A DNA stretch of 64,000 bases from Pseudomonadota bacterium (lineage in GTDB: Bacteria; Bdellovibrionota_C; UBA2361; OMII01). The stretch is taken from positions 44,589-108,588 of the forward strand of contig JAIXQT010000075.1 of assembly GCA_027485595.1 (NCBI GenBank), read 5' to 3'. Each line of letters begins with the position of its first letter. Positions within the stretch are counted from its first letter, which is position 1. This document shows positions 1,864 through 62,169 of this stretch, one piece after another. Under the pieces are notes generated by a model. That model ran no database searches, was not told the origin of the DNA, and saw nothing but the letters and a program-made list of their open reading frames with translations. Both the position numbers and the translations under genes were made by a program.

Positions 1864-3954
1864 ATGAGATCATCCTCCCTTTCTCGTTTTATTACCCACG
1901 TCACCCTCCAGATAGTATCCGCGTATACTTTTGCTTGTTACGTAGCTGCTGACCAACGTGAGCTCCCGCAACCACGGGGGGCCGTAGACGCCGTCCTGCT
2001 CGTAGACGCCTCTGGAAGCATGCTGAAGACAGACGCTCAGATGCTTCGGTATGAGGGGGCAAAGCTCTTTTTGCAATTTCTCGGCAAGGATGATCGGCTC
2101 GCGATTGTTAGCTTCGGTGACCAAGCCCGCGTCGTCAGCGACTTGAGGGACTTTAGTAAGGAGCCGATAAACGAGGTTGTCCAACAGATCCAATCGATCA
2201 AAACGGAGGGGCAGTACACAGATATCCTTGAGGGCGTTCGGGCAGCAGCAAGGATATTAGAGGCGAGTCCCCGTAATGACGCTGAGCAAATTATCGTCCT
2301 ACTCTCGGATGGTAAGATGGAACCGAGTCCGCAAAGCGGCACGGCGTCAACCCGAACGCTTGAACTGGTCAACCAAGTACTTCCTGAACTGAAAGCGAAA
2401 GAGATTAAGGTGCACTCACTCGCTTTTTCGGATCAAGCCGACAAGATGCTTCTGTCGGAGATATCGGCGGCTACGGACGGTTTGAATTGGTTTACCGCCA
2501 CATCTGATGATGTTCATAAATCGTTTGCGAGCCTTTTCCTTGTGGTCAAGCGTCCGCAGGTTTTGCAGATGCGCAGTAGGTCCTTCGCCCTAGACGAGAG
2601 TGTTGATGAGGCGACGTTTTATATCACTCGAGATGAGGGCTCGAAACTCAAGCTTATTAGCCCAAAGAACCAGGAGATGACGGTCGATCAAATTCCTGAT
2701 TGGGTTACGTGGTTCGCCGGTAAAAACTTTGACGTAATCACGATGAGGGAGCCTGACATTGGAGAATGGCAGGTGCAAGGAGGGGGAAATACGGAGGGCT
2801 TCGCCACAGTCCTTACTAATCTACGGCTCGTCACGGATTGGCCGGTAATCATTCGGGTGGGTGATAAAAACGTGGTACAAGCCCGACTCTATGACGGTGA
2901 GAAACCGGTGGCCTTGCCCGAGATGTCAGGAGTTGTCCAATACGCGTTTCAAGTCATGCCAACAGACCGAATCGCCGCGGCAGTTGCCAAAGATTTCTTA
3001 AACGACGAGGGAAGGGACGGGGATAGGGTCGCTCGTGATGGTATCTTCTCGCGATATTGCGTTATTCCAGAGGCTGGAGAGTACAAACTTTCGATCGTCG
3101 CTCGGGGGCCAACCTTTGAACGGTCTCAGCAGGTTCCTTTTCGGGTGCGCCCTCCACTTCTCAGCTTTAGCGTAGCCGCCGGTGGCGATCACGGGGATGC
3201 TCACGATAAACACTCGCACGAAGGCGGGGAAACGTCTGGGCATCAGGCCTCGCACGGAGAGAGCAGTGTGATCAAGGGCGATCAAAGTGGTGTTTTTCGA
3301 GTTGAGCTGAGCAAAGAGGCTATGACGTTCCGTGATGTAGAGGTCTCGGTAGAAGCGCTTTCTCAGGAGCGCAGAAAGACCGTTGTTCGTCTCAAGCGTG
3401 CTCATGGAGAGGAAGGAGGGGTGTATGAGGGGAGCATCGACACCCTACCAGAGGCTGGAACCTATACACTAACGGCCATGCTCAAAGGCATCTCAAAGAA
3501 GGGGCAGGAGATGGAGGCGGAGAGTGAGCCTCTGAAGTTTGAGCTAACGGGTTTTGTGAAAAAGCCTGATCCTACTCCCACCCCGGTTGCGAAAGAGGTT
3601 CATCCTGAGGGGCCGAGCGAAGGTAAAAAGTTTCCGATACTCCCAATCGTAATAATCAGTGCCTCAAGCGTTTTAGCGATGATCGTTGGGGTAGTTCTGA
3701 CCAAGAAAAAGAAGGGACCGGGGTCGAACGTTACGCCGTACAATCCTCCGAAACAGATGCTCGATGCGATCGCGAGCCTCGAGCAAAAACTTGCGGCTTC
3801 CGACGTGAAGGTCGGCGATGTGAAGTTGGAGTCGGAGGTCGAGGCCGAACGAGCTGAAGCGGCCACGAAATCCGAAAATTCCCCCCAAGTAGAAAACGCC
3901 CCGGAAGACGCGACGCTCCAATCCGCGGATCCTCCGCCCTCCGAGGAGAGGTAG
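1864..3954 (+). CDS. von Willebrand factor A (VWA) domain protein with C-terminal transmembrane anchor and acidic/coiled tail
   Basis: It has a MIDAS motif (LLVDASGSM) and the VWA signature (IIVLLSDGK). A TM helix (FPILPIVIISASSVLAMIVGVVLTKKKK) lies near the C-terminus and no N-terminal signal peptide is evident. Confidence 0.7.
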   Translation: MRSSSLSRFITHVTLQIVSAYTFACYVAADQRELPQPRGAVDAVLLVDASGSMLKTDAQMLRYEGAKLFLQFLGKDDRLAIVSFGDQARVVSDLRDFSKEPINEVVQQIQSIKTEGQYTDILEGVRAAARILEASPRNDAEQIIVLLSDGKMEPSPQSGTASTRTLELVNQVLPELKAKEIKVHSLAFSDQADKMLLSEISAATDGLNWFTATSDDVHKSFASLFLVVKRPQVLQMRSRSFALDESVDEATFYITRDEGSKLKLISPKNQEMTVDQIPDWVTWFAGKNFDVITMREPDIGEWQVQGGGNTEGFATVLTNLRLVTDWPVIIRVGDKNVVQARLYDGEKPVALPEMSGVVQYAFQVMPTDRIAAAVAKDFLNDEGRDGDRVARDGIFSRYCVIPEAGEYKLSIVARGPTFERSQQVPFRVRPPLLSFSVAAGGDHGDAHDKHSHEGGETSGHQASHGESSVIKGDQSGVFRVELSKEAMTFRDVEVSVEALSQERRKTVVRLKRAHGEEGGVYEGSIDTLPEAGTYTLTAMLKGISKKGQEMEAESEPLKFELTGFVKKPDPTPTPVAKEVHPEGPSEGKKFPILPIVIISASSVLAMIVGVVLTKKKKGPGSNVTPYNPPKQMLDAIASLEQKLAASDVKVGDVKLESEVEAERAEAATKSENSPQVENAPEDATLQSADPPPSEER

Positions 3955-23675: not shown

Positions 23676-23903
23676 GCGTATACTTCTGAGCGACGATCGG
23701 AGCACGCGAGAGAGTGTACGAACCCGGCCAGGATCGGAAGATAGCAACCGCACTACATGTATCTGTGATGTGTTTCCGGTCGTCGTTTGTACGAGGCGTT
23801 CCAAAATAATCCCATCCTCATAGCTCGTTGCGCAAAGTTCTTGATGCGAATTCGTACAAGACTGAGTATCGTGTAGAAGCTTGTTTGTTTTTGGAAAACG
23901 AGA

Positions 23904-26877: not shown

Positions 26878-26952
26878 TCCCCGGTAGCTCAGTTGGTAGA
26901 GCAGGCGGCTGTTAACCGCCTTGTCGGGGGTTCGAGTCCCTCCCGGGGAGCC
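26878..26952 (+). tRNA. tRNA-Asn (anticodon GTT)
   Basis: Cloverleaf by hand. The acceptor stem TCCCCGG pairs with CCGGGGA. The D-arm is GCTCAGTTGGTAGAGC, the anticodon stem-loop is GGCGG-CTGTTAA-CCGCC, and the T-arm is GGGGGTTCGAGTCCCTC. The discriminator G and CCA are encoded. Confidence 0.85.
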
Positions 26953-27241
26953 ATTTGTCCGAACAGGACCGATAGGCTCCTCTTTTTTTATCCATACATT
27001 CATTCGGTATGCCCCGCGTCCATTCGGAGGGCGACTGTCCACGGTCGCCGAAATGTCGCGCATCGTACATGACGTTCGCCCTACGCAACGACTCGGCGGT
27101 CGGGGACCCGCCTTCGCTTCGCTACGTCGAGGCAAGCCGGTCGCCGTAATTCCGTGATCCCATGCCCCCTTCGCCAAGGATGGCAGAAATCGCGCATCTC
27201 GGGCATCGTAGGAGCGTACAGTTTTTGAACCGGTTCGTAGT

Positions 27242-34233: not shown

Positions 34234-37200
34234 TTATGGGAGCAGCGTTTGGTGCAGGTTTTGCGAGCGAATGAGTGAGTAGTGAGCAGGGATAGTAAAG
34301 AGGGGTGTGTTTCTCTCACCCTGTCGCAGGAGACGTCGGTACACCGTTCGGGATTCGTTGTCGACCCAGAAGATCCCTGGGGCCTGTGTAAGTGCGTCTG
34401 TTAAAAATATACCTGTCGAAATGGTAGCGCTTCGGGCCACATAAAACAGTGGAAACGCGAACGTCCCCGCTAAGGTCGTTATACGCATCTGTCGGCCATT
34501 GTTGTTGGTGCCACCCAATATCGCGAGTAAGGGAACTTCAGAGCTACCGCGACGAACAACGAAACCTCGGAGAAATGGGTTATAGCTGTGCGCGGCGATT
34601 CGCTTGCCGGATAGATCGAACGCCGCGACACCGGGCTTGCGTCGATCGCCTCTCGCTACCTTAAAAATAATTTCATCTACTCCATCAGAGTTGATATCCC
34701 CACACCCGATCAGATCTCCGGAAAGGGATCTGGGGAGCTCGGTCACGCGCTTACTCGGAGAGTTATAGGCCCTCGTGTGCAGCTTCCTCTCGGCTCTATC
34801 GTAGACCGCCAACGATGAGCCGGTCTGTGTGGTGAATGAACAGCCGGTGATGACGGTGTCCCCAGAGCTTCCAAAGCTGACGCTTTGAATATCCCCTAAT
34901 GAAGAGAGTTTAATATTCCACCTGAGACCTGCCTCGGTAACCGCAACGGCAGCCAGGTCAGTGGTTCCGTCGCCATCGTAGTCAGCCGGCACTGGGTAGC
35001 GCCCCTCCACGGTCGTTGAGGACCACATGCTGTCCCGAGTGTGGCGACTCTTAAAGGTGACAGCGGCTCCTGTTGTACGCGATACGGTGATAGCTGTATC
35101 GCCCGTCCCATCGAAGTCGAGGGGAGCAGCCTCAACGACAACGACTGATGTCGCCTCGGATGGTGCGCTTCTACCTCCGTTTTCCGCGATAAAGGTAGTA
35201 ACGATTTGGTGTCGACCCGCGGCAAGCGTTGGTAACGTAAACTCCCATGTCCCCGCTTGAGACATCATTCCTTGAGCACCCCTTTCCGAACCGGATATCA
35301 CGGTCGTTCCAACCACGATGCCGTTGATCGCGATCTCCACGACATGTCCCGGAATACCGGTTCCTGAGAGTGTGACCGCTTTTTTGTTCGTGATCACCGG
35401 TTGTGTCCCGTATTCGGCATCAGGAACTCCGATACGAGCTTGAGCTGGTGGGACGATCGTTGGCGTGAGTGTTGGGGTTACGGTTGCCGTTGGGGTAGGG
35501 GTGGCTGTTCTGGTGGAAGTTGGAGTTGGTGTCGATGTTGGAGTTGCGGTGCTCGTTGGAGTCGAAGTTGATGTGGCGGTGGAGGTTACCGTAGGGGTGG
35601 GCGTCCAGAGAGCGCACGTGCTCGGCTCCCCAACGCATGAGAAACCCGCGTCCTGTCGGCAGGTATTAGAGCATCCGTCCGCGACAGCCGAGCCCGCGTC
35701 TGTGTAGCGGCCGACAGTGATATTCCCTTGGAAGATACTTTCAATCGTAAAGAGAATTCCTAATGAGGAGATCGTAGCAGCTCTCATATACGACACGGGT
35801 AGTCTCGATGACGTGCCGTAGGTGGTATCGAGTTGACCACTAGAAGAGTAGCGATACACGCCCGCCAGCCAACCAGTATTTCCGACAAGCACACTGCCGT
35901 TACTCTGTGGAAGGGCATAGAGCGCATTGCCGACAGAATCTAAAATTTCAACCGTGCCACCACTCCCCCAGGTTGTATCAGTTGTTCCGTCAGCATTGAG
36001 ACGAAGAACCTGCCCGGCGTACCCACAATCCTCACAATTTCTTGTCACATGCAGGGAGATAAGGAGCTTTCCATCGGTAGTAAGCGCGAGGTGATTCGTT
36101 TGAACGTAGTCCGGGTATAGGGATATGGTGCGCACTCCATTGGTGCCGAAGGAGGTGTCGAGCGTGCCATCAGAATTGTATCGTGCAAGCCCCGCTCGAT
36201 ACTCACTCCCTTCCACGACAGTTCCGGCTACCACTATCTTTTGGTCACCCTGAATCGCTACGGCAAAAGCATCGCCACCTGTTCCCCACGGCAGGAGCAG
36301 AGCCTTGCCATCGCCATCGAATGTTGAATCCAAGGAGCCATCAGCGTTGTAACGAACGACGCAAAAGCGAGAGTCGGCCGTGCCGGCCACAACGATCTTT
36401 CCATCAGCTTGGACGGCTATCGCTCGAGCGTAGGCTTGCGTTGACCCGACCTGTGTTAACACCTGACCGTCGCCATCGAACGTTGTGTCGAGGACTCCTG
36501 CTGACGTCAGACGAATGAGGGCGAGCCGGCTCACCCCTCCGAAAGTTGCGCGCGCTGCCCCGGCCATGAGGATCTTGCCATCTTGTTGTACTGCTATTCG
36601 GCCGATATTGGTTGAAAACGCTACCGGGATGAGCGCCTGTCCGGTGCCGTTAAATGTTGTGTCGAATTCTCCCTGGGCGTTAATGCGAAAAATACCCCAC
36701 TGGTTGTCTCCGCCGCTTCCCGAAACGCTTGCGCCCACAACCACCTTGCCACCGGGATAAGGTTGAGCGTCTGAGGGTGAAACGAATGTTGCGGACGAGA
36801 TCGAGAAGGATCGGGGATTTGACGCTGCGTCGTCGCACTCCTCCGCGCCTCTCACTAATCCATCGCCGCAGACCGGAGAGCAAGATGTGCCGGTGCAGGT
36901 GTAGCCCGCTTCTCGTGCGCAGGTGCTTGAGCATCCATCGCCAGATGTTGTGTTACCATCATCGCATGTTTCTGGCGCTGTTGTTTGAGAATCTCCACAA
37001 TCGCAGGGATCTCCGATGCCGTCGTTGTCATAATCCTGATTAGATTCGGCTACCAGAGCTGGGCAGAGGTCACAGGCGTCTCCATGATAGTCCCCATCAG
37101 AGTTGGCCTGATCGACGTTCGAGATCGTTGGGCAGTTGTCAACGTTGCCGCACAACCCGTCCCCATCAACATCGTTGTTAGAAGATAACGGGCAGGTGTC

Positions 37201-37428
37201 GCACTCATCCCCGCGGCCATCAAGGTCGTTGTCCACCTGCCAGCAGCCATCGTCACAGACCTCAGGGTTGTAAACTCCGGGGCAGTTGTCCCAACTATCG
37301 TCCACGTAATCTCCGTCAGCATCTACCGCCCAGGCCATGGTGGGAGCCGAAAACATAAGGAACAACGCGACAATGGCGTGGATCCATTTTGATGGTGCAG
37401 TGGCTTCAAGGTAGGGGGAACGCATCAT
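34234..37428 (-). CDS. Large secreted multi-domain surface protein with thrombospondin-3-like Ca-binding repeats, a Myxococcus-type Cys-rich repeat, a delta-60 repeat propeller, a Thr/Pro linker and an Ig-like/FG-GAP-like C-terminal region
   Basis: Signal peptide; D-x-D-x-D-G repeats (DNDLDGRGDECD, DVDGDGLCG, DYDNDGIGDPCD); CGDGLVRGAEECDD; recurrent LDTTFDGDGQ / LDSTFDGDGK / TLDTSFGTNG / TTDTTWGSGG motifs; a TPTPT linker; DYDGDGTTDL and GDINSDGVDE. Confidence 0.7.
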   Translation of the reverse strand: MMRSPYLEATAPSKWIHAIVALFLMFSAPTMAWAVDADGDYVDDSWDNCPGVYNPEVCDDGCWQVDNDLDGRGDECDTCPLSSNNDVDGDGLCGNVDNCPTISNVDQANSDGDYHGDACDLCPALVAESNQDYDNDGIGDPCDCGDSQTTAPETCDDGNTTSGDGCSSTCAREAGYTCTGTSCSPVCGDGLVRGAEECDDAASNPRSFSISSATFVSPSDAQPYPGGKVVVGASVSGSGGDNQWGIFRINAQGEFDTTFNGTGQALIPVAFSTNIGRIAVQQDGKILMAGAARATFGGVSRLALIRLTSAGVLDTTFDGDGQVLTQVGSTQAYARAIAVQADGKIVVAGTADSRFCVVRYNADGSLDSTFDGDGKALLLPWGTGGDAFAVAIQGDQKIVVAGTVVEGSEYRAGLARYNSDGTLDTSFGTNGVRTISLYPDYVQTNHLALTTDGKLLISLHVTRNCEDCGYAGQVLRLNADGTTDTTWGSGGTVEILDSVGNALYALPQSNGSVLVGNTGWLAGVYRYSSSGQLDTTYGTSSRLPVSYMRAATISSLGILFTIESIFQGNITVGRYTDAGSAVADGCSNTCRQDAGFSCVGEPSTCALWTPTPTVTSTATSTSTPTSTATPTSTPTPTSTRTATPTPTATVTPTLTPTIVPPAQARIGVPDAEYGTQPVITNKKAVTLSGTGIPGHVVEIAINGIVVGTTVISGSERGAQGMMSQAGTWEFTLPTLAAGRHQIVTTFIAENGGRSAPSEATSVVVVEAAPLDFDGTGDTAITVSRTTGAAVTFKSRHTRDSMWSSTTVEGRYPVPADYDGDGTTDLAAVAVTEAGLRWNIKLSSLGDIQSVSFGSSGDTVITGCSFTTQTGSSLAVYDRAERKLHTRAYNSPSKRVTELPRSLSGDLIGCGDINSDGVDEIIFKVARGDRRKPGVAAFDLSGKRIAAHSYNPFLRGFVVRRGSSEVPLLAILGGTNNNGRQMRITTLAGTFAFPLFYVARSATISTGIFLTDALTQAPGIFWVDNESRTVYRRLLRQGERNTPLFTIPAHYSLIRSQNLHQTLLP
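35455..35615. repeat. Low-complexity Thr/Pro/Ser-linker coding repeat inside the large surface protein gene
   Basis: It encodes TPTPTVTSTATSTSTPTSTATPTSTPTPTSTRTATPTPTATVTPTLTPT. The reverse strand gives a spurious GV-rich ORF. Confidence 0.6.
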
Positions 37429-48184: not shown

Positions 48185-49738
48185 TTACCCGATTGCCTGA
48201 GCTGACTGGCCAGATTGCTTGGCCAAATCCACCACCTCCTTGAGCATCTCAAGCTTGGTGATGATCCGAGGTACCTTGTTCTGTCCCCCTAATTTGCCCC
48301 GTCGACGCATCCATTCGGCGAAGAAGCCGGGGGCTACGGGAAGGATCTCGGGAGCCTTGAGTCCGAAGCCCTCTGAGCGATGAGCCTCATAGTCCTCGTT
48401 TCGTTTGCAGAGCCGCGCGTCGAGTGTCTGTTGGAAGCGCGCTAACGTTTCGCCTGAAGGAAGCGAGTTCGCGAACTCGACAACGTAAATGTGTCCACCA
48501 AGCTCGCCTGAGCGTTCCGGAAATACCGGTCCAACAGTAAAGTCAGATACCTCGGTACCTGTTTCATGCGCGGCGGTCGCGATTCCATCCTCTATCTCCT
48601 CAGCGATGAGATGCTCTCCGAACGCGGAGAGGTAGTACGAGGTACGACCGGTCACGAGAACGCGCGGTGTCTTCGTATCGACGAAGCGAACGGTGTCGCC
48701 GATCACATACGACCAGAGTCCGGCGCACGTCGTAAGGATGATCGCGTAGTTCACATCCTGCTGAACGTTGCCGATCCAGTGACGAGTTGGTTGCGCGCTC
48801 TCAAGCTCCTCAAGGGGAACGAACTCAAAGAAGATCCCGTGATCGAGGTTCATGCGGAGTCCATCGCCGTACCCACGATCCCCGACCGCGATGAAGCCTT
48901 CGCTCGCGGGATACACCTCGCGAAGCTCTGCGTGGCTGTGAGCGAGAAGCTCTCGGAATCGATCAACATACGGAGCGAAATTGACGCCACCGTGCACTAC
49001 CATTTCGAGGTTCTCGTAGATGCGACCGATCTTGCCCTGCGCCTCTGGTCGAAGCGAATTAAGCTTGTCGAAGAAGATCAGCATCCACGCTGGAACGCCC
49101 GAGATCATACGAATATCCTCGGAGAGTGAGAGGCTCGCTAAGGTGTCGATCTTCTCCTCCCAGTTCTTGAGGAGCGCTAGATCCGCCGGTGGGAAATATC
49201 GCATCTTCGCCCACCACGGCAGCTCTTTGACCGAGATGCCACTCAGGTCGCCGAAGTAGATTCCAGGAGCTGCGTTTGTGAGGTCCGTGCTGCCGCCGAG
49301 CATGAAGCTCTTACCACCCATCAAACGAGAGTGCGGACGATTCGTGACATGATGAATGAGAAGATCTGTTCCCGCCTTCGTGTTCGACTTCAACATCTCA
49401 CGGGAGTAGGGGATGTACTTCGTTGTGCCCGAAGAGGTACCGGAGCTCACCGGGAAGTAGGGGATCGTTCCGGGCCATGTGCAGTCGGTAAGAACTGGGA
49501 AGCTCTCCTGCCAAAAGTCTCGCCAGAAGTCCTCATACTTTCGAAGTGGAACCTGTCGCTGATAGTCCTCGATTGAGTTGATAGAGGAGAATCCATGCAT
49601 CTTTCCGAACTTCGTCGACGCCGCGTGGCGAACGAGCCCTAAAAGTTGCTTCCTTTGAGTTTCAGTGGGGTTAAGGGTGTTGAGTTGTTGGTTACGCCAA
49701 CGGGCGTACAGCCGTAGGAAAGGGGTTGCGTCAAACAT
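48185..49738 (-). CDS. GH3-family acyl-acid amido synthetase (adenylate-forming enzyme superfamily)
   Basis: GH3 signatures: the SSGTSSGTTKYIPYS AMP-binding motif, the YASSE-like YPASEGF, and overall length and order. Confidence 0.7.
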   Translation of the reverse strand: MFDATPFLRLYARWRNQQLNTLNPTETQRKQLLGLVRHAASTKFGKMHGFSSINSIEDYQRQVPLRKYEDFWRDFWQESFPVLTDCTWPGTIPYFPVSSGTSSGTTKYIPYSREMLKSNTKAGTDLLIHHVTNRPHSRLMGGKSFMLGGSTDLTNAAPGIYFGDLSGISVKELPWWAKMRYFPPADLALLKNWEEKIDTLASLSLSEDIRMISGVPAWMLIFFDKLNSLRPEAQGKIGRIYENLEMVVHGGVNFAPYVDRFRELLAHSHAELREVYPASEGFIAVGDRGYGDGLRMNLDHGIFFEFVPLEELESAQPTRHWIGNVQQDVNYAIILTTCAGLWSYVIGDTVRFVDTKTPRVLVTGRTSYYLSAFGEHLIAEEIEDGIATAAHETGTEVSDFTVGPVFPERSGELGGHIYVVEFANSLPSGETLARFQQTLDARLCKRNEDYEAHRSEGFGLKAPEILPVAPGFFAEWMRRRGKLGGQNKVPRIITKLEMLKEVVDLAKQSGQSAQAIG

Positions 49739-50182: not shown

Positions 50183-50453
50183 CGTCTACGATACTCGCCG
50201 TGAAAGGTCAGTTCTTACAGATAGTTCGACTGTCGTTTGGGCGGCATCCACGCCTACGTACACGATCCCGGAACGGATCTGAAGCGCTCTTCACGGGAAG
50301 CTCCACACTTGTTTCCTCGGAGATACTGCGCGATCGCGGAGCCGCCATACTGTGAAACATCACGGAGTCCGTTCTCTGTCCCCCCGTTCTCGGAGAGAAA
50401 GATAGGGGGTACGCATGTCGAAGGTTGGGGTGTTTCCACGCGAGAGACCGCAT

Positions 50454-51035
50454 CTATCTGAAGAACAACGGTCGCCCTTCCTTCGAAACAGAATACGTAT
50501 CCAAGATCGTCTTGATCCCTTGACAGCATCGAGCGCGAAGCTGTCCGTCGCTGAGTGCTTGAGCGTCGATCTTCGTAGGATCTCTTCGAATCTCTCCCCT
50601 AAGGCTCTCGCGCAACGGCTCGAGTGCAGCCATCTTCTGAATGACCTCAAGCGTTGCTCCTGCTACGATCTCTTTCTTTGCCTTGTCGTTGAAGGCCGTA
50701 TGGTGCTTCTTCATCGCATCCACAAGGATCGGTGGAAGCTCAACCTTGAAAAGGTGGTTGAGCTGTTGCTCAATCGGCGCACTCGCAGGCAACGCAGCCG
50801 GCGCAGCCGCTGGCTTAGCCGGCACAGGCTGTGTAGGGCGTGCGGGAGTCGCTTGTCGTTGCGGAGACGCCGGTGGAAGCGCCTTACCCGCCCCACTGTC
50901 AATGTGCTTCCCTCTAAAATCGGGAAGGCTCGCTTTATCAAGCGCCGGAGCTGCCGTAGTAGTGGTGCTCTTATCTGGAGCCCGATTTTGGGGCGTAGCC
51001 TTCTTCGCTAGCCGGGCTGATCCTGGTTGGCACAT
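50454..51035 (-). CDS. Hypothetical protein with Pro/Ala-rich N-terminal half and helical C-terminal half
   Basis: It begins 36 nt downstream of the 1404-aa gene on the same strand. The overlapping plus-strand ORF is Arg-rich low-complexity and was rejected. Confidence 0.4.
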   Translation of the reverse strand: MCQPGSARLAKKATPQNRAPDKSTTTTAAPALDKASLPDFRGKHIDSGAGKALPPASPQRQATPARPTQPVPAKPAAAPAALPASAPIEQQLNHLFKVELPPILVDAMKKHHTAFNDKAKKEIVAGATLEVIQKMAALEPLRESLRGEIRRDPTKIDAQALSDGQLRARCCQGIKTILDTYSVSKEGRPLFFR

Positions 51036-51071
51036 ACAAAACTCCTACGCTACCGCTACAATCGATCCCTA

Positions 51072-54000
51072 CTATTCAAAAAAGAGAGCCTTTCGCGCCG
51101 CCACAAAAGCGGGGTCGCTCAGTAGTTGATCGCGGATGATTCTAACCTTCTCCCCGTACAGATCAACTAATGTTCTCATCTCAAGGATGATATTCGGCGC
51201 TCCACTCGCTTGGTCCTCCTCAAAGGTTACAAGGGCCTTTTTCCAGGCGTTTAGACACGGCATAACGCCGCGATGGAAGTGATCCGACGTTGTGTCACGC
51301 CCCTCATCGCGCCCCCGCACCCAGCTTGCCGCCAGAATGTCCTCTATGCCATGCCGCTTAAGGAGCTCCCGCAGATCGGCTTGAAAGGGGATCGAGAGCT
51401 CCGCGAGTGGACCACCGTACTCACCATTCGACAGGATCGAACCGATCAGTTGAAACGTTGGAGCTCGGCTAATATCGATCAACCCAAGCATATCGGTGCG
51501 TCCGTCGAAGGTGAAGAAGTCTCCGCCCCCAGAACGCCGATGACCGCCCTCGCCGGGAAAGCTCGCCAAGGGCCCTGCTGCGTCGTAAATCACCATCCGC
51601 TTGCCGGTCTCGTGGTTGTAATTGCCAGCGGAGAACATCTCGAGCGAGTACTCGGGATTATCCACCGCGCTCAACAATATCGTCGCGCCGAGCGCGGCGC
51701 ACTGTGCTGGACGCAAACGTCCGCGAATACAGAATTGGTACTCCGGGAACTCGGGCTTGATAATCTTAAACTCCACAAGGAGCCGCGCTACCTCAACCAA
51801 CTCACGAGCGCTCGTCATAGCTGGGAGTACGATGCAGTCATCGGCGTTATCCACCTTAAAGCCGCCCGTGAACGAGAAGGGGGCTACAAGTTGGAGCGCC
51901 TCAAGTTTCCTCCTATCGACCTTAGAGTGAAGGTGTAGCTTGCACCCAATCGGAAGCAGAGCCGCCGCGTCACGACGGAGTTCCCTCACGATCCCACGGA
52001 ATTCGTCGAGCTTTGGATCGCTCGCAAGAACGCTCAAGCCCTCCTTGTGTACCTGCGGCCACTCCTCAAGCTGTGCGACCTCGCCGTCCCGCGCACCCTG
52101 TTCAGCGATCATCCGCTGCATCAAGAAGCTCCCTACAAGGGCGTGATTAGCAATAGCGAGCGAGTCATTCGAGCGACTTAATCCACGATTAATAGTGTTC
52201 ACGGCGGCGTTAATCTCTTCCGCGCACTGCTTGAGAAACACCAGATGCATCCATCCCGGAAAAACCTCAGCGAGCACCTTTCTTTGCGGGAGCAGTAACG
52301 GCTCCTCCCATCCGGCAATTTCACGCCCCCAGTTCTCCGGATGGGCGCTCTGAGCCTGATCCCGAAGTCGTTCAATCGATTGCACACTACCCCGTATAGC
52401 GTGAGTAACCCCCTCGAGAGCACCCCAGCTTAAGAGGCTTGCGGAGAGCTTCGATGAAACCTTGGCAGGGTCGAAGCACCGCGCGAATTCAAGCACCTTT
52501 CCATCAAGATGCTTCTGTACCGTTTCGGCATTTGGTGAGCGCGGTTGATCATCGCAGAGATCTCTCGATTCATACGACTGCTCCTCGAATGCCATAAGCT
52601 CACTATCGTGCTCCGGTGCCACGGTGAGCTGCTCTATGAGGGTGTCGAGACAGTGGCGGTGCTCACGCGCGTCGAGCACCCCTGCGGCGACCAGGAGATT
52701 GAGGTTGTAGATCGTTGGCGCAATGGCGCAGAACTTCTCACGGCGATATGCTTGCTGAGTTCCCTGTAGCTCCCCAGCAGCTCTTCGAACGTTCTCTATG
52801 ACACCTTCGTGGTCGATCTCTGGAGGAGAGATAAGCATCGATTCAAAAGGCGGTAGCGGACGGTCATGGGATGAAAACTCGTCATCACAATCGCGCTCTA
52901 CATTCGCGAGTCTCTCCCTCTCAATGGTGAGTTGTTGTGCTGCCCATGGCTCCGGAGCGAAATCAGCCTCTAGTAAGAAGTAACGGTCGCGGGGGAGTGC
53001 TCTTCGCTCCCACTTCTCGACCTCCTGCGCGATCGAGTGGTGACGATTAAGGAGTCTGTACGCTCGGGCAGCCACCTTCTCCGCTGGTTGGCGCATCCCA
53101 ATATAGCTCTCCGCGACCTCGATCCTCGTAAGCCGCTCCGCCGAAAGTGGGGCGGTAATCCAGCCGAAGAGACGAGAGACGGCTTTGGGACTCACGAGAC
53201 CGATAAGCTGCGCGTCAAGCACCGCTGAGAGCGCGGCGAACTTCTGCACCAAGAGATCTCTGTTGTTTTCCTCATGAAGATGGTGTTTCGAGCGAAAGCC
53301 TGGCCAGGAGATCACAACGTTAGGGTCACGAATCGCGTCGTACTGCTCAAGAAACCGCAAGAACCCACGGGGGGGACTGAGCGGCTCCGGCATCTTGGCC
53401 GCGAAGAAGGCGAGATACACTTGGGCGATAAATCGTTGTTTCCGTGGGGAGCCGAGCACCTCACTCGCAAGGCGTTGCTCGAACTCGTGCCACGCCACGG
53501 CAGGGGACTGGGGAGCAACGGAGGCGTTACACTCAAGGAGGAGCTCGCGCGGACCGAGAGGGATGTGCGTGCCGAGCAATCCAGCGGTGCGTCGCTCGCC
53601 TCGACCGGTGAGTGGCACGGGATTAAACGCGCGGTTCTCAAGGGGGAGGGCGAGGGGGCCCTCAAGTTGCAGGAGGTCAGACACCGTAGCGGACAGGTCA
53701 AACGACTGTCCCTTGCTGGCGCCGCTGAGTCCAAACACCTCCCGAAGGTTTGCGAGCCCCGGTTTAGCGAAGGAAGCCTCGCTTCCCTCAAGGATCGCGA
53801 TAATCTTTGAAGTCGGCTTCTCGCGCATCAAGCAATCTTCAAGGATTGAGAGGCCCCGCGCGGATCCGTTCGTACCGTACTGACCCATGAGATCGACCGC
53901 GTACTGCCCGATTGCGCGAGCACGCTCAGGATTCCCCGCGCCGTAGTAATTGATCACCAGAGAGCAGAACCGGATCGCCACCTCTTCGCCGACCTCCGCG

Positions 54001-55286
54001 AAGGACGCGAGCTCCTTCCCCTTTGCCGCGTAGAGGGTCGCTGTCTCCTCAAAAGAGGAACCCGCGATAGCGGCTATTTTATGGATCTCATCTCCAGAGA
54101 GCGATGGCGTCACGATCGCAAAGTCACGACGGAACCACCACGGGGCAGCGCCTTGGCAATAGATATCGGTAATAATCTGAGTGGCGCGGGCGAGCGCTGT
54201 TTCTGGCGCCTCAGCGTGAAGGTATTGGAAGAGGGCCGACGCGCGGTCGGGATTAAGACCGTTCTCAAGCGCTGACTCAAGTGCGCGGACAAATGTGGTA
54301 AAGTTCTCTGATTGAAGCTCCTCATGCGAAAGACGCTCTCGATTCTCCAGCGCAAAGAGGAACGCTTCTGGAAGAACCTTGTCGCCCGTCACCGCTGATA
54401 CGATCCGATACGTCGCATCACTCCATGCGTCACGTGCGAAGACCCGCTCACGATCGAGCTCCTCGTTCCTTACGTTCCCCATAACAGAGGCAAGTGGCAT
54501 AAAGGCGAGCTCAGGCGGTAACGAACGGTAATCGTGCCCAAGGCACGACACGCCATGCCCGTGCGTTATCTCAACACACGCCGCAGCCCATGCCAGTGGC
54601 GAGCGAAAAGCATCTTGCCCGAGATGTGGATGGACCGCCTGCGCGTAGAACTCAGGCTGAAAGTAGAACCACTGAAACAGAGCCTTCGTCGTGTACTGAT
54701 TGAGGAACGCGAGAACAGAGGCTCGCTCAACTCGCTTCGACACATCACCATCTTCTGAGAGGGCGAGGTCGGTCGCAGGAATGCCGCCGTTGGAGGGTGT
54801 GATCGTAATCGTATCGTCTGTAATCCGAACGGAACCCTCGCGACGGTCGCGCAACGCCTCGGTCAATCCCTTGAGGTGCTGTTTGAGCCACGATAAGCGG
54901 GGACCCTCTTGGTTGTGGTCACCGGACCTCTCATAGCGATCCTCTTCTAAAAACCGCCTGATGGCGAACTGTTCAACCGAAGGTGTGCGGCTAGAGTAGA
55001 AGAAGAGGCCCCACTTCGGACCGTACTGAAATAGATCGTGTCGCCCCTGGAGAGGACGGATGTAAATGTAGTGGGGGAGAGTTTCCGTCTCGCTCATATC
55101 GGCGAGACAGCGTGGACCTGGATTGTACGCGCCGCCTAGTGCTCGGATGGGAAAGTTAGAAACCTCTGCGAGTAACTCCCTAAAGTCCTCTAAGAACTCG
55201 CTCTCCCGCGAAGGGAGAGACAGGGATTCCTGCGGCGAACTCTTTAAGGCAACAACACTAGTACTCATCACGAGACACGGCCACAC
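51072..55286 (-). CDS. Very large (about 1400 aa) soluble hypothetical protein without recognisable domains
   Basis: A 4.2-kb uninterrupted ORF with genome-typical codon usage. There is no signal peptide or TM helix, and no Walker A or HExxH. The possible start is MSTSVV at 55268. Confidence 0.6.
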   Translation of the reverse strand: MWPCLVMSTSVVALKSSPQESLSLPSRESEFLEDFRELLAEVSNFPIRALGGAYNPGPRCLADMSETETLPHYIYIRPLQGRHDLFQYGPKWGLFFYSSRTPSVEQFAIRRFLEEDRYERSGDHNQEGPRLSWLKQHLKGLTEALRDRREGSVRITDDTITITPSNGGIPATDLALSEDGDVSKRVERASVLAFLNQYTTKALFQWFYFQPEFYAQAVHPHLGQDAFRSPLAWAAACVEITHGHGVSCLGHDYRSLPPELAFMPLASVMGNVRNEELDRERVFARDAWSDATYRIVSAVTGDKVLPEAFLFALENRERLSHEELQSENFTTFVRALESALENGLNPDRASALFQYLHAEAPETALARATQIITDIYCQGAAPWWFRRDFAIVTPSLSGDEIHKIAAIAGSSFEETATLYAAKGKELASFAEVGEEVAIRFCSLVINYYGAGNPERARAIGQYAVDLMGQYGTNGSARGLSILEDCLMREKPTSKIIAILEGSEASFAKPGLANLREVFGLSGASKGQSFDLSATVSDLLQLEGPLALPLENRAFNPVPLTGRGERRTAGLLGTHIPLGPRELLLECNASVAPQSPAVAWHEFEQRLASEVLGSPRKQRFIAQVYLAFFAAKMPEPLSPPRGFLRFLEQYDAIRDPNVVISWPGFRSKHHLHEENNRDLLVQKFAALSAVLDAQLIGLVSPKAVSRLFGWITAPLSAERLTRIEVAESYIGMRQPAEKVAARAYRLLNRHHSIAQEVEKWERRALPRDRYFLLEADFAPEPWAAQQLTIERERLANVERDCDDEFSSHDRPLPPFESMLISPPEIDHEGVIENVRRAAGELQGTQQAYRREKFCAIAPTIYNLNLLVAAGVLDAREHRHCLDTLIEQLTVAPEHDSELMAFEEQSYESRDLCDDQPRSPNAETVQKHLDGKVLEFARCFDPAKVSSKLSASLLSWGALEGVTHAIRGSVQSIERLRDQAQSAHPENWGREIAGWEEPLLLPQRKVLAEVFPGWMHLVFLKQCAEEINAAVNTINRGLSRSNDSLAIANHALVGSFLMQRMIAEQGARDGEVAQLEEWPQVHKEGLSVLASDPKLDEFRGIVRELRRDAAALLPIGCKLHLHSKVDRRKLEALQLVAPFSFTGGFKVDNADDCIVLPAMTSARELVEVARLLVEFKIIKPEFPEYQFCIRGRLRPAQCAALGATILLSAVDNPEYSLEMFSAGNYNHETGKRMVIYDAAGPLASFPGEGGHRRSGGGDFFTFDGRTDMLGLIDISRAPTFQLIGSILSNGEYGGPLAELSIPFQADLRELLKRHGIEDILAASWVRGRDEGRDTTSDHFHRGVMPCLNAWKKALVTFEEDQASGAPNIILEMRTLVDLYGEKVRIIRDQLLSDPAFVAARKALFFE

Positions 55287-55393
55287 AACGGTTTGGGCAA
55301 GAGCCGGAGTGTAGCTGGAGCGAAGGGGCTACTCAAACGATGCAAAGGTACTATGAAAGCCCTGGATCGTGAGGGGAGGGTGGGGTTGTTTGT

Positions 55394-56632
55394 TTGGGTA
55401 GGCAATGGTCTGGAATGTCAAAATACGCCACCCTACCCCTCAACACCCCCATAACCCTTCCCATGCACCCAGCCACCAAAACCATCGCTACGCCCTCTGT
55501 TCCTCCCTATCGGTCCGATCCCCTCGACTCCCTGGCAACGCAGTCTTCAGAGATCATGATCCTTCACAGTCAGCTGTTAATCGCCTCAACCTTGCGTGCG
55601 CAGGGGGTTTTCGGCGGCGCAAGCCCCTCAGAGGTCCGGGCCCACTTTGAGCGGATCCGCGACCAGCTATCGCCAAACGTGCCGAGCGATGATCTCAAGC
55701 GGTACAGCGATATCCGATCCCCTGGCAGTCAGATGATGCATCTCTTTCTTTCGCTCTGCGCGCAGGTCCCCCAGTATCTCTCGGATCGGGTTGGGGGCTC
55801 CTTGCCAGCGAGGGATGCTCTAGATTGTCTCCGTGACGAAGCCCGAACCCGGAAGTTCCTGGAAGCCATCCCTGAATCTCTCGCTCGCATTCGAAACACC
55901 AACCCATCAGGGCAGGTGCATGTCGTCGATGCTGGATGTGGACCGATACCGATCATGGCGATCGCGGCTGCCTGGAGTGATCCGGGGGTGTATGTAACCG
56001 CGCTTGAACTTAATCCGCTCTCTGCTGAGCTTGCGCAAGGGATCATTACCGCTCTTGATCTTCAGGATCGAATTACTATCACATGTGACGATGCGACGAC
56101 CTACGCACCCTCCCGGCCAATTGACCTCATCATCTCTGAAACGATTAGCGCCGGCCTACTCAATGAGCCAGTGGTTGCGGTCATGCAGAACCTCTCGAAG
56201 CACCTAACCGCGAGGGGGGAAACGCTACCAACAGGGATCGATGTGCACCTTGGCGTTTTTCCGATTCATCAGTTTGAATCCCCGCTCGGCCACCTCCCCT
56301 ACAATGGCTTAACCGCGCTCTTGGCGCCCACAGAGCTTGCGCGCATCCCGTGGAAAGCGACCTCCCCTTTGTCTAGGATCGCGGCTCGAATGGCTATTGC
56401 TCCCTGCCATGCTGACTCGGTCGCGTGCGCATGGTTAACAGTACGGCTAGGGGACGCGGCGCTTCGCATGAACGAATCCCTCATCACGACACCAACGCTC
56501 GTGAACTGCCTGACATCCGACAAAAAAATTGAACCACTTATCATCAATGCCCTGCCAGCGCCAACATCGATTGCAGTTTTTGGTGAGCCTGGCGGACCAT
56601 TTCTTATCGGGGTACTTCCTCGGAACGAGTGA
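55394..56632 (+). CDS. Class I SAM-dependent methyltransferase with PRMT-like (protein arginine methyltransferase) double-E loop
   Basis: Motif I VHVVDAGCGPIPI, an acidic post-I residue (TALELNP), then PIDLIISETISAGLLNEPV. This aligns to the PRMT1 VDIIISEWMGYCLFYESM segment with the two Glu residues spaced identically. It is divergent from the 1404-aa gene. Confidence 0.5.
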   Translation: MGRQWSGMSKYATLPLNTPITLPMHPATKTIATPSVPPYRSDPLDSLATQSSEIMILHSQLLIASTLRAQGVFGGASPSEVRAHFERIRDQLSPNVPSDDLKRYSDIRSPGSQMMHLFLSLCAQVPQYLSDRVGGSLPARDALDCLRDEARTRKFLEAIPESLARIRNTNPSGQVHVVDAGCGPIPIMAIAAAWSDPGVYVTALELNPLSAELAQGIITALDLQDRITITCDDATTYAPSRPIDLIISETISAGLLNEPVVAVMQNLSKHLTARGETLPTGIDVHLGVFPIHQFESPLGHLPYNGLTALLAPTELARIPWKATSPLSRIAARMAIAPCHADSVACAWLTVRLGDAALRMNESLITTPTLVNCLTSDKKIEPLIINALPAPTSIAVFGEPGGPFLIGVLPRNE

Positions 56633-57300
56633 CTGGAAAATTCGCTCCTATCTTTCTGGGTAGTGCCTCACCAGGGTGGGCCACACATAGTTGCCACTAC
56701 CAAAGACGAGAGGAGAATTCGATGCCCTGTGTCCTCCCTTTATGGACATGGATACATGATGAGGGCAGTGCGAGACCCTGACCTATCCCACATTAGACCA
56801 TACCCGAGAGTCCTCAAGGATATCGAGCGCCCAGCGAAAGTGCCTCAAGACTTTGGTACACCCTACTTTTCAAAAGTAGGCGAAGTTGTTGAAATCGCAG
56901 GTTAGCTGAAACTATCTCTGATATGCACTGCGGCGCTTGGGCGGCTTCGATTAAGGAGGGTGTGTCAGAGGATTGAGCTAAGCAGATAGGACTCCTTACA
57001 ATCGGCCACTGGCGTAATTAGTTGTTTGATAAGTAACCCCAGACCTGGAGGAGAAAGAAGCACGCGCAGGTCTCTTAATAATGAAGAGGAAAACGGAGCG
57101 AAAAGGGACGTTTCCTTTTGTGATGCCTCTAACCGGTCTTGGTGTCGTGACTGGATGTAGTAGCCCCGGTACAGAGGAACAATTTTTTGATCAAAGGACC
57201 AAGGATCAAAGGGAACCAACCCCTCCTAGCGGAGGGGATCAAGGATGTCCGCCGTAGCGCCACAGGCGCGAAGGTGGGAACCCAATGACCGAGGACTAAA

Positions 57301-58665: not shown

Positions 58666-61600
58666 TTGCCATTTTTTGTATGCGACGCATCCCCTCCGTT
58701 TCGGCAATGCGGGGAAAGCATGGGGCACTTAATACAAATACGGAGCTTGAAGCCGATGGCGGCGCTGATCGTCATCGCCGTTGTGGTCGGACTTATTGCG
58801 CTGCCCAATCTACGGCAGCGGCCCCAACTTCCGATTGACGTACGCAAGGTGAGCTCTCTTGAGGAAATATCATTCAATCCAGAGGGAACGTGGAAGGTCA
58901 CTCTCAACGAGGGAGAGACGCTCAAAGAGTACGAGGTCTATGACGCATCAGGGCGAGTAAATCTCTCTCGAGCGAAGTCAATCCTTGCCTACTTTTGGGA
59001 TAGAGTGATTTTCAGTGAAACCTTAGATGTCGAGGGAGAGAATCTTGCGATATTTAGGGTCTCTACAACAGCAGACGGAGATCTCAAGAGCTCGCCCGTA
59101 TTCCGCCGAAGCTATAAACTCTTCGGTATCTCCTCAACCGGCAAGCTCGTCGGCTTTCGGGATGTACAGGGCTCTCTCCCCTCAGGGGCACCCGAATTGC
59201 TCTTCAACTTCGGGCCATTTCTCAAAGGGGGCGCCACCAACATCGGCAGTGGGTCTATCAGCATCCCCCTCGAGATTTCCCAGAAAGAGGATGCTCTCCG
59301 CGTACGAAGCATTGGTCAAACGACCGAGCCGCAAGCGTTTGTGGCCGCCACTGTCAAAACCCCCTCCGGCATCAAGGTCCGCGGGTACCTCATAAAACTA
59401 TCAGGAGCATCCCTGGCTCTTCCATCCCTCGATCAGGTTGTGGACAACGCGCAGAAGGGGGTCGTAGCAGAGACGATCACCGCACCAACTTACAAGAGCA
59501 AGGATGCTCAGGGCTCAAGAGACCTCGGCGGCTCACCAACCACGGGCTCGAACGGCCCCTCAAAGGACAAAGGAAAGGTCTCGATTGACTCAGTAAACGC
59601 TTCGGCTTCAGTCCGTACCCCGACAAGAACACCGACCGTGACGCCAACCCATACCCCGAGCCGAACTCCCACCAGAACACCGACGGCGACTCCGACAATG
59701 ACCCCTACTCGCACACCGACGGTAACACCGACCACCACTCCGAGCCGCACGCCGACGAGGATTCCAACGGCCACTCCGAGCCGCACGCCCACACGTACCC
59801 CAACGGCACCTCCAACAAGAACACCTACTCAAACACCAACCGCGACGCCTACAGCGACCCCCACGCGGACTCCAACTGCCACACCCACGAAAAAATGTGG
59901 TGATGGAGTTAAAAATATTGGAGAGGAGTGTGACAGTGGTAATAAGAATTCAAATTTAAGCGATCAATGTAGAACTGATTGTAGGATGCCAAAGTGTGGG
60001 GATGGGATAAAAGATAGCAATGAAACTTGTGACATTAATGATTTTAAAGGATTGGTAAAACCGAAAAAAATGCCAGAGGATGTTTTCGCGCAAAAAGTTT
60101 GTCATTCATCATGCAATATTGTCACTTATCCAAATTATTGTGGTGATTGGATAACAAATATTGATTTAGGAGAAGAATGTGATCATGGCGAAAATAACTC
60201 TAATTTAGGTTATGAATGTAGAACTAATTGCACAGTGCCAAAATGTGGTGACGGAATAAAAGATTTAAATGAAGCCTGTGACATTGGCGTACTAAATAAA
60301 GATAGTTTTAGTGGCTGTGATACAAAATGCAGAACGACAATTTGTGGAGATGGAAACGTTACAGGTGCTGAAGAGTGTGACGACGCGAATACGAATGATA
60401 CAGACAATTGTACCAATGTATGCCGGCAATCAAGATGCGGTGATAATATAAAAAATGGACAAGAAATTTGTGACGCGAATGATTTTGCGGGAATAATAAA
60501 ACCAGAAAATATGCCCGAAGATGTTTTTGCAAAAAAAATCTGTGATTCATCATGTAATCTTTCTTATCCAGAACATTGTGGTGATGGAATAAAAAATGTT
60601 GATGAAGAATGTGATACTAATGATTTTAGAGAAGTAATTAAGTCTGAAGAAATGCCAGATATTATCTTCAGAAATAAAAAATGTGACTACAATACATGTA
60701 AGGTTATCTACGAACCATTATGTGCAAAAGGTCAAGTTTTGAATTGTATAGATGAGTGTCCTAGCGATTCTAACAAAGCCGACCCTGGAGTCTGTGGCTG
60801 CGGAGTAACAGATACCGATACCGATACCGATGGTGATGGAACAGTAGATTGTATTGATGAATGTCCTGAAGATAGTAATAAAAATAAAGTTGGAGGTGGA
60901 TGTGGGCTCGTTGATATCGACTCAGATAACGATGGTACTCCTGATTATAAAGATCAGTGTATAGAAGATGCTAATAAACATGACTCTGGACAGTGCGGTT
61001 GTGGTGTAGCGGATCTGGATTCAGACCGAGATGGCACTGCTGATTGTAAAGATGAATGTCCTGATAATGCTTCATTAACAGCAAAAGGAATATGTGGATG
61101 TTCAGGAGATGAGGATTCAGATGGAGATGGTACTCTTAATTGTGAAGATCAGTGTGTATCAGACAGCAAGAAAACATCACCAGGACATTGTGGATGTGGC
61201 AATGCAGATTACGTTGTAGATGACCAACCAAGTTGCTCTAAACATGTACTTGCACTAGAGCCAGCACCAACTGCCACACAAACACCGACACCTGAAACCT
61301 CTCAGGGAACTCAGCAAAAATGTTGTGTTTGTTTATATGAAGAAGAGTTTAAATCTGAGTGTGGAGTTTGGAGAAATAAAACTGGAGGTTGTACTAGTGG
61401 TGGTGATTATCCATTGAGTAGTAGCGAAATGAGTCCTCAAAGTGTTTGTGGAGATGTATCTAATGTAGAAGTTTATACTGCTGCTCATATGGATGAATCT
61501 GATGCAGCGTGTCTTTCAGACATTTCAGAAACTTTAGTTAGCTCATTACCAGCATTAACTTCTTGTCACATAATACTAGATGGATGCAATTCTTTTAATA

Positions 61601-61959
61601 ATATGAATCTAGCTAATGCAGAAGCTAGGAGAATTAGACAATACCTAAATAGTTGTGGACGTACGAATGTAGAGGTAACTATTGAGGGAAATGAAAATAT
61701 TACTTCAGATCTTACAGGGGCTCCTGGTAATACTCGTTGTTCTCCAAGAGGAATTAGAGTTTGTGCACGTACTATTACTGACGTATTACATAAATGTCAT
61801 CCTGCTGGAAGTGACTGTTGGACGGACCCGCAGAATCTAGATAGTAGAACGTGCACTGAGGCTGGAGTGACAAAAACTCAAGTTTGTGTAGCAAATGGTG
61901 GAAACGAAAATAATAATGGGGATGGGAGTGGAGCCGGAACTTGGCAATTTCGAAATTAA
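58666..61959 (+). CDS. Membrane-anchored large cysteine-rich repeat protein (N-terminal TM, unknown domain, Thr/Pro linker, Myxococcus-type Cys-rich repeats, thrombospondin-3-like repeats, novel Cys-rich C-terminal domain); probable start ATG 58720
   Basis: TM helix [17 protein letters not shown]; the TPTRTPT linker; repeated CGDG(I/V)K...EECD modules; TSP3-like [38 protein letters not shown]. From ~59890 onward the DNA is strongly AT-rich. Confidence 0.65.
59617..59892. repeat. Thr/Pro-linker coding repeat ((T/R/S)PT)n inside the 58666..61959 gene
   Basis: It encodes [31 protein letters not shown]... The reverse strand yields a spurious GV-rich ORF. Confidence 0.6.
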
Positions 61960-62169
61960 AGTTTAGTTGATCTGCCCCCTCAGTTAGTACCAGCCCTGAT
62001 TAGGTTTCCCAGATATTTTTCCTGCCTAACATATTTATTCATGGCTGTCTTGCAGTCCCTCGGCGTGGTTGAGATTCCGAGTGAGCTATGTCACCGTCCA
62101 CTTTCCGGCGTCCTAGCGACCAAGCATGAGTCTCGTACCCTTGCGCTTCCACGATTAAGGAGGTGCAGG

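Follow-up and report, generated by a model that had tools for sequence, protein, structure and literature searches.

The question raised by this locus is whether a bacterium encodes a protein arginine methyltransferase (PRMT) of its own, PRMT-catalysed arginine methylation being, in the textbooks, essentially eukaryotic. The gene concerned lies in a 64,000-nucleotide stretch of contig JAIXQT010000075.1 (the window, meaning the whole of the DNA analysed); its product is a class I S-adenosylmethionine (SAM)-dependent methyltransferase in which the initial annotation recognised a PRMT-type double-E loop, and it stands divergently to a giant orphan gene that was suggested as a source of its substrate or co-factor. 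Our preferred reading, to which we give a probability of roughly 0.55, is that the gene product is a soluble, SAM-dependent N-methyltransferase of class I, located in the cytoplasm, related to the PRMTs and likely methylating arginine in a peptide or protein, with the giant protein and a small 193-aa protein encoded beside it as its partners.

The open reading frame (ORF) 55394..56632 on the forward strand exists as described, and both the SAM motif I VHVVDAGCGPIPI and the segment DLIISETISAGLLNE are present as quoted, the latter at 56123-56167 with a proline as the next residue (to 56170). The ORF specifies 412 aa from a TTG at 55394 or 405 aa from an ATG at 55415, which is the start called in all database orthologues and the basis of the residue numbers used here; a G-rich Shine-Dalgarno-like tract 13 nt 5' of the TTG leaves a seven-residue uncertainty in the start, which is without functional consequence. 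No hydrophobic signal or transmembrane segment was found in the methyltransferase.

A single-sequence phmmer search of all PDB chains returned PRMT7, CARM1, PRMT6 and PRMT9 as the best matches (E-values 4.6e-6 to 0.2), with both glutamates falling on the double-E loop of CARM1, and in the HMMER alignment the segment matches the CARM1 loop DIIISEPMGYMLFNE residue for residue. A five-member profile reached 1.9e-8 and listed about 50 PRMT matches ahead of the first non-PRMT, and a profile of 88 family members again had CARM1 as its best match, at 2.4e-13. The top 58 PDB matches of this larger profile are PRMT1-9, yeast Hmt1 and Hsl7 (2.4e-13 to 8e-6), the first non-PRMT match (1.4e-5) covers 50 residues only, and PRMTs outrank all other methyltransferases in the PDB by about eight orders of magnitude in E-value. 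Among Pfam families, PF05185 (PRMT5) is the one matched by most members (71/88 at E<=0.01, best 1.3e-10), with the window methyltransferase itself falling below the gathering score (18.5 vs 22.9 bits). When the family was compared with human PRMT1 by hhalign, a match of probability 98 (E = 2.6e-13, 143 columns) spanned D-x-x-R-T, motif I, the double-E loop and G-x-x-x-P, and paired VDIIISEWMGYCLFYE of PRMT1 with IDLIISETISAGLLNE of the window; the result is used as corroboration only. The residue-for-residue alignment with PRMT1 given in the initial annotation was in this way reproduced exactly, and the spacing of the two glutamates is identical.

The homology is not confined to the loop: it begins at the helix preceding motif I, takes in motif I, the post-I Glu and the double-E loop, and extends to G-x-x-L-P. 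The helix DCLRDEARTRKFL aligns with MMQDYVRTGTY of CARM1 and MLKDEVRTLTY of PRMT1, reading C-L-R-D-E-A-R-T-R-K-F in the window, with a final aromatic residue that is Phe here and Tyr in PRMTs; we take R144 in this helix to be the ligand of the SAM carboxylate and D141 to be the Asp of the PRMT His-Asp relay. Further along, VVDAGCG and ALE198 are conserved in at least 86 of the 88 members and align with both CARM1 and PRMT1, E198 presumably being the ligand of the ribose hydroxyls, and S-E242-T-I-S-A-G-L-L-N-E251 aligns with SEPMGYMLFNE of CARM1 and SEWMGYCLFYE of PRMT1. Published PRMT structures show the SAM carboxylate bound by the Arg of D-x-x-R-T, the ribose by the post-I Glu, and the substrate guanidinium by the pair of glutamates in the loop. 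Conservation was counted over the 88 diverse members of the family profile, which are 21-33% identical to the window protein: R144, G174, T243, E251 and P272 are each present in all of them, E242 and G176 each in 87, D172 and E198 each in 86, D226 and T145 each in 84, F148 in 83 and D141 in 82. The pattern [ST]-E-[TCS]-x7-E is kept in 136 of 148 family representatives. Because E242 and E251 are conserved, the pattern is so widely kept and PRMTs outrank the other methyltransferases of the PDB, the double-E match goes beyond chance, and the resemblance to PRMTs is one of homology.

The initial annotation had proposed a search of HMM (hidden Markov model) collections and a structural superposition on PRMTs as checks. 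No small-molecule or rRNA methyltransferase family was assigned by the former, so that the outcome named in the initial annotation as a ground for refutation did not arise: PrmA was rejected at 13.9 bits against a cut-off of 22 for Pfam PF06325 and 15.9 against 244 for NCBIfam PRK00517, and CbiT, PrmC and TrmN were rejected as far below their cut-offs. For the latter, an AlphaFold model was built from a nine-sequence alignment (mean predicted local distance difference test score, pLDDT, 79.5; predicted template-modelling score, pTM, 0.81); no conclusions were drawn from an earlier model made from five sequences (pLDDT 56). Residues 1-42 of the model are disordered, 45-162 form a helical N-terminal region, and the Rossmann domain that follows leads into an all-beta C-terminal domain of about 140 residues. 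A Foldseek search of the PDB with this model gave 50 top matches that are all PRMTs (best 8e-12), with about 310 columns aligned to PRMT cores of about 330 residues, at target-normalised template-modelling scores of 0.5-0.55 and a high root-mean-square deviation of 5-11 Å. The model and these matches fit a PRMT-like two-domain arrangement.

Compared with the eukaryotic PRMTs, of which CARM1, PRMT6 and PRMT7 are nearest by score, the window protein therefore has the same D-x-x-R-T helix, motif I, post-I Glu, S-E-x8-E loop and G-x-x-x-P, and likewise two domains with a predicted all-beta C-terminal one, but it differs in several respects. The initial annotation could find no clear THW loop, and we agree: neither THW nor FSW is conserved in the C-terminal domain across the 88-member alignment, and the family has C-terminal motifs of its own, [YN]-[ED]-S-x-I-[TS]-x-P and Y-x-P-G (S355 in 85/88, P360 in 80/88, Y390 in 82/88, G393 in 87/88). 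Alignments to PRMTs end at about residue 289 in both the profile search and hhalign, the C-terminal sequence is unrelated, and a profile of that domain alone matched no PRMT and no other chain in the PDB. Where the long PRMT dimerisation arm would be expected the model shows only a four-residue helix (284-287), and the C-terminal domain is about 35 residues shorter than that of PRMT1. Nor is the YFxxY motif recognisable in the family; the region reads LFLSL in the window, the family consensus L-E-x-Y-[LF]-L lies about 30 residues upstream of D141 as against about 12-16 in CARM1, and the alignments support no equivalence. The extra N-terminal helical region, of about 130 residues, and the bacterial host complete the list. 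Because C-terminal motifs of its own replace THW and no long arm is evident in the model, neither the type of product (mono-, asymmetric or symmetric di-methyl) nor the oligomeric state is predictable.

The methyltransferase is on these alignments not filed in the PRMT family proper, its catalytic half being homologous to PRMTs and probably working like theirs; of the PRMT identity first proposed, the homology of the Rossmann half with its double-E loop stands, and full membership fails on the THW loop. In mechanistic terms, the protein belongs to a large unnamed bacterial family whose catalytic half shares its ancestry with the eukaryotic PRMTs, and it retains the PRMT-type D141, R144, motif I, E198, D226, E242 and E251. 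SAM would be bound as in PRMTs, E242 and E251 would clamp a guanidinium group, and the methyl group would go to a terminal side-chain nitrogen of an arginine within a peptide or protein, with the C-terminal beta domain predicted to occupy the position of the PRMT barrel. Arginine methylation is the most likely chemistry of the enzyme, favoured by a small degree. The features discussed here and below are collected in Table 1.

Table 1. Positions in the window of the methyltransferase gene, its motifs, its putative partner genes and other features of the surrounding DNA.
Feature	Position	Strand	Basis or remark
PRMT-like class I SAM-dependent methyltransferase, coding sequence	55415..56632	+	ORF, orthologues, PRMT matches, dN/dS
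Helix motif DCLRDEARTRKFL, equivalent of the PRMT D-x-x-R-T segment	55823..55861	+	Alignments, conservation
SAM-binding motif I VHVVDAGCGPIPI	55916..55954	+	Sequence; D172, G174, G176 conserved
Post-I motif VTALELNP, with E198	55994..56017	+	Aligned to CARM1 AVE
Double-E loop DLIISETISAGLLNEP, with E242 and E251	56123..56170	+	Profile alignments, conservation
C-terminal all-beta domain, about residues 264-405	56204..56629	+	Secondary structure of the model, conservation
GETLP, equivalent of the PRMT G-x-x-F-P turn into the C-terminal domain	56216..56230	+	Alignments, P272 invariant
NESLITTP, conserved C-terminal motif	56471-56494	+	Family conservation
FGEPGG, conserved C-terminal motif	56579-56596	+	Family conservation
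1398-aa orphan (giant gene), putative divergent partner	51072..55268	-	57%-identical orthologue beside the methyltransferase orthologue in L010-L012
193-aa orphan downstream of the giant gene	50454..51035	-	48% identity to the L010 counterpart, E = 1e-55
Divergent intergenic region, methyltransferase/giant gene	55269..55414	.	146 bp; presumed shared promoter region
Three-gene cassette as exchange unit	50440..56842	.	6.4 kb; identity contrast, synteny end
GH3-family protein	48185-49738	-	Full-length, three-domain
1097-aa repeat protein	58666-61959
Bacterial small signal recognition particle RNA	23692-23787		Rfam/ARAGORN
tRNA-Asn(GTT)	26878-26953		Rfam/ARAGORN
Large surface-type protein	34234-37428	-
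Large surface-type protein	1864-3954	+
PilQ secretin with AMIN domain	14726-17371

Proteins of this kind were initially thought rare in bacteria, a view contradicted by an exhaustive HMM search, in which 1.84 billion cluster representatives yielded 2,487 matches at E<=1e-3 (1,207 at E<=1e-10, 143 at E<=1e-30), many of full length, as well as by the comparative genomics of Aravind, Iyer and colleagues (2011/2012). The same search overturned the impression of a tiny family that word-indexed searches had given, with their four to seven relatives. Nearly all family representatives carry D-L-L-[IV]-S-E-T-M-x-x-G-L-x-x-E-P, the labels they bear at source are 'hypothetical protein', 'predicted RNA methylase' and 'precorrin-6B methylase 2', and no NCBIfam model covering the family was found.

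One member comes from a cultured organism, Pseudoalteromonas xiamenensis (WP_308362773.1, 'class I SAM-dependent methyltransferase'; hhalign probability 99.9 against the family). Its gene (L016:8950-11524, NZ_CP099918.1) is followed on the same strand by a low-molecular-weight phosphatase gene (PF01451) and a 2-oxoglutarate (2OG)-Fe(II) oxygenase gene, with gaps of 42 bp and 105 bp in the row. The fold of low-molecular-weight protein tyrosine phosphatases includes the known protein arginine phosphatase YwlE, and the row could be an arginine-modification operon. At another site (L015:6766-9992) tandem paralogous PRMT-like methyltransferases of 375 and 394 aa precede a HEAT-repeat protein, with a SAM synthetase and two Ser/Thr kinases nearby.

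Our literature searches found no experimentally characterised bacterial protein arginine methyltransferase of the PRMT fold. According to a 2022 review, only Rv1988 of Mycobacterium tuberculosis, a secreted nucleomodulin acting on H3R42 of host histone H3, has been demonstrated as a bacterial arginine methyltransferase nucleomodulin, and two PRMTs of Legionella pneumophila are predicted and unstudied. Rv1988 is secreted and acts on its host, whereas the window methyltransferase shows no evidence of secretion or of a eukaryotic host. To our knowledge, Rv1988 does not belong to the PRMT family.

The relationship of the methyltransferase to its neighbours is the second part of the question. That the giant gene is divergent from it was borne out, with the length corrected from 1404 to 1398 aa by a true start at ATG 55268, which gives a product that matches an NCBI protein exactly. 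This giant protein, which is soluble, is most conserved at about residues 1101-1300 and has a ratio of nonsynonymous to synonymous substitution rates (dN/dS) of 0.16; neither the whole protein nor its conserved C-terminal block has a match in Pfam, NCBIfam, PADLOC, PHROGs or the PDB. The 193-aa protein (dN/dS 0.22) has a Pro/Ala-rich linker ahead of its conserved C-terminal region. A consensus scan of the 146-bp intergenic region found no convincing sigma-70 site, and the search for promoters and terminators gave none that was convincing.

The trio recurs in a distant lineage (L010-L012) within an unrelated neighbourhood, at identities of 54% for the methyltransferase, 57% for the giant protein and 48% for the small one, and also in close relatives, on four contigs (L018-L021) drawn from different samples; in both, the giant and 193-aa genes are co-conserved with the methyltransferase. 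Between the window and L019 the cassette (50440-56842) is 96.3% identical and the adjacent GH3 backbone 88.3%, and synteny with relatives that are 95-97% identical stops at 56842-56844, about 210 nt past the methyltransferase stop codon. With an identity above that of the backbone and so abrupt an end to synteny, the trio has the behaviour of a cassette that was exchanged recently. Against the sister lineage L002, synonymous divergence (dS) is 0.78 for the GH3 gene (dN/dS 0.05) and 0.30 for the methyltransferase, and the contrasts in dS and identity point to lineages having recently swapped the cassette by recombination. At its edges we found no repeats, integrase, tRNA or known RNA family. 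Past the end of synteny the relatives have APH, Fic, an 80-aa gene, a 419-aa gene and eventually the histidyl-tRNA synthetase gene, and the window has a 202-aa ORF (with a weak match to phrog_5869), a 1097-aa repeat protein and fumarase. An ORF at 56663-56905, just downstream of the methyltransferase, was rejected as non-coding, with frame-breaking indels in relatives.

If the preferred reading holds, the giant and 193-aa proteins would most likely be the substrate, an adaptor or a co-factor of the methyltransferase. Three observations weigh against this part of it. The sister lineage L002-L006 is without the segment equivalent to 50368-55316 of the window, which holds the giant and small genes (GGAG microhomology is seen at the junction), and keeps an intact methyltransferase despite the loss; the distant family members examined have no giant or small neighbours; and the giant protein contains no RGG/GAR tracts. 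The methyltransferase is under purifying selection, with a dN/dS of 0.16-0.27, and this includes the lineage without partners; because the ratio is 0.23 there and 0.22 against a partner-retaining lineage, the enzyme is evidently still useful on its own. The idea of a partner gene has therefore survived in part: two lineages co-conserve both genes with the methyltransferase, but the sister lineage has dropped both and the wider family does without them. Dependence on partners is not absolute, because that lineage lost both and kept the enzyme.

Four other explanations were weighed. The enzyme might be a guanidino- or amino-methyltransferase that acts on a small molecule or on a ribosomal or non-ribosomal peptide natural product, for instance by converting free L-arginine to N-omega-methylarginine, which we regard as unlikely. 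Such an activity has bacterial precedent in SznE/StzE, the SAM enzyme of streptozotocin biosynthesis that methylates a guanidino nitrogen of free L-arginine; compared by described function, it works in a biosynthetic gene cluster, and there is no such cluster at the window gene. By comparative genomics, Aravind, Iyer and colleagues (2011/2012) deduced that bacteria possess PRMT-like peptide methylases, proposed that the eukaryotic PRMTs derive from them, and placed their closest relatives in antibiotic-like, secondary-metabolite operons (with dioxygenases, non-ribosomal peptide synthetases (NRPS) and LSD1-like oxidases) and inside NRPS megasynthases. The window protein shares with those peptide methylases a PRMT-homologous catalytic domain in a bacterium, and a methyltransferase domain of a Nostoc NRPS has a weak tblastn match to a family member (6e-5). 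The window gene and most relatives examined nevertheless differ from them in standing alone or, here, with two orphans: none of about ten family contexts contains NRPS, polyketide synthase or tailoring clusters or the precursor of a ribosomally synthesised and post-translationally modified peptide, and we found no secondary-metabolite operon partners either in the window or in any of the L002, L010, L013, L014, L015 and L018-21 contexts. The one feature that recalls them is the 2OG-Fe(II) oxygenase that lies two genes downstream of the Pseudoalteromonas member, which counts in favour of a natural product. So does a GH3-family amido synthetase that adjoins the cassette, but it belongs to the backbone (88% vs 96% identity) and the L010 context lacks it; the partners conserved with the methyltransferase are large orphans and not enzymes of biosynthesis.

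Equally unlikely, in our estimation, is a PRMT-like scaffold re-purposed for lysine, a protein N-terminus, glutamine or histidine, with the double-E loop binding some other cationic group. In its favour are a different conserved motif in place of the arginine-positioning THW loop and a C-terminal substrate-binding domain unrelated in sequence to PRMTs, and 61 of the 88 members also match the MTS small-domain family, some of them matching PrmC or PrmA weakly. Yet conservation is as strict for the two glutamates, their eight-residue spacing and the Ser before them as for the SAM ligands, and in characterised enzymes the double-E pattern is not known to serve anything but guanidinium recognition. 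The PrmA, PrmC and lysine methyltransferases of the PDB score far below PRMTs, PrmA structures ranking below every PRMT in the search with the 88-member profile, and the NPPY-type motif of glutamine and adenine N-methyltransferases is absent (1/148).

That the cassette is a conflict system, an anti-phage defence or an inter-organism effector/toxin module in which the methyltransferase would act on a host or foreign target and the giant protein would be sensor or effector, is a reading we consider rather improbable. Its exchange as a unit would suit such a role, as would the APH and Fic genes by the synteny breakpoint in relatives, the position of another family member beside Fic, AbiEi/AbiEii and ORF6N, and the disordered N-terminus (about 42 residues) of the methyltransferase model; large orphan proteins are common in conflict systems. 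The PADLOC model mad2, moreover, matches 86 of the 88 members. This last match covers only about 105 Rossmann residues, however, and mad3-8 are all missing; neither the giant nor the small protein matches anything in PADLOC or PHROG, no phage homologue of the methyltransferase family was found, and no secretion system or signal, integrase or flanking repeat is tied to the cassette.

Mad2 itself is a predicted N6-adenine DNA methylase from the MADS defence operon mad1-8, of which mad6-8 are mandatory, and the window protein shares with it, as with PrmA, the class I Rossmann core. That it is a homologous DNA N6-adenine methyltransferase is highly improbable and was rejected, for in spite of the PADLOC score (E = 1e-8 for the window protein, 7.5e-16 for the best in the family) the match is confined to the Rossmann core at residues 162-268, an NPPY-type motif, [DNS]-P-P-[YFWH], occurs in only 1/148 representatives, the position after strand beta-4 being S-E-T-[MI], the DNA methyltransferases of the PDB are not among the top matches, the neighbours have no PADLOC match and there are no MADS genes nearby. 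Since the mad2 model cross-matches this family, pipelines that annotate defence systems could mislabel its genes and so report false positives.

Returning to an arginine-methylating enzyme with the two orphans as partners, what is new here is a bacterial PRMT-like methylase that has neither a THW loop nor an evident dimerisation arm and that sits in a cassette with two orphan genes. The family now delimited is a large bacterial one, which comprises thousands of sequence clusters, lacks a curated name, carries the full PRMT catalytic signature and has its C-terminal specificity elements replaced. A bolder extension, which we put forward tentatively and think doubtful, is that it represents a widespread bacterial system of PRMT-type protein arginine methylation, free of the THW loop, monomeric or differently assembled, and here tied firmly, within a cassette that is exchanged horizontally, to the 1398-aa orphan as dedicated substrate or adaptor and to the 193-aa protein as accessory; if so, PRMT-style protein arginine methylation would be an indigenous bacterial modification and not a eukaryotic invention. 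The candidate partners next door and the cultured member make bacterial PRMT-type methylation, and the ancestral form of the PRMTs, directly testable.

The remainder of the window is ordinary chromosome, with genes for PriA, DnaX, a proton-pumping pyrophosphatase (H+-PPase), a PilQ-type secretin and fumarase. The GH3-family protein is assigned to the plant-type acyl-acid amido synthetases, and its gene lies by MntP and Fur in relatives. The 1097-aa ORF past the cassette contains (T-P-T-x) repeats, Cys-rich DUF4215 repeats and TSP3 repeats; 2 kb within it (60001-62000) have a GC content of 0.38, where the window mean is about 0.55, and a GC skew of +0.24, and a PADLOC 'REase_II' match on the repeat region looks like an artefact of low complexity. 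The bacterial small signal recognition particle RNA and tRNA-Asn(GTT) are the sole features found by Rfam and ARAGORN, and both are far from the cassette. The two large surface-type proteins have DUF5122 beta-propeller, TSP3, DUF4215 and VWA domains, and together with the AMIN-domain PilQ they suggest a 'delta-proteobacterial' (Myxococcota/Bdellovibrionota-like) lifestyle.

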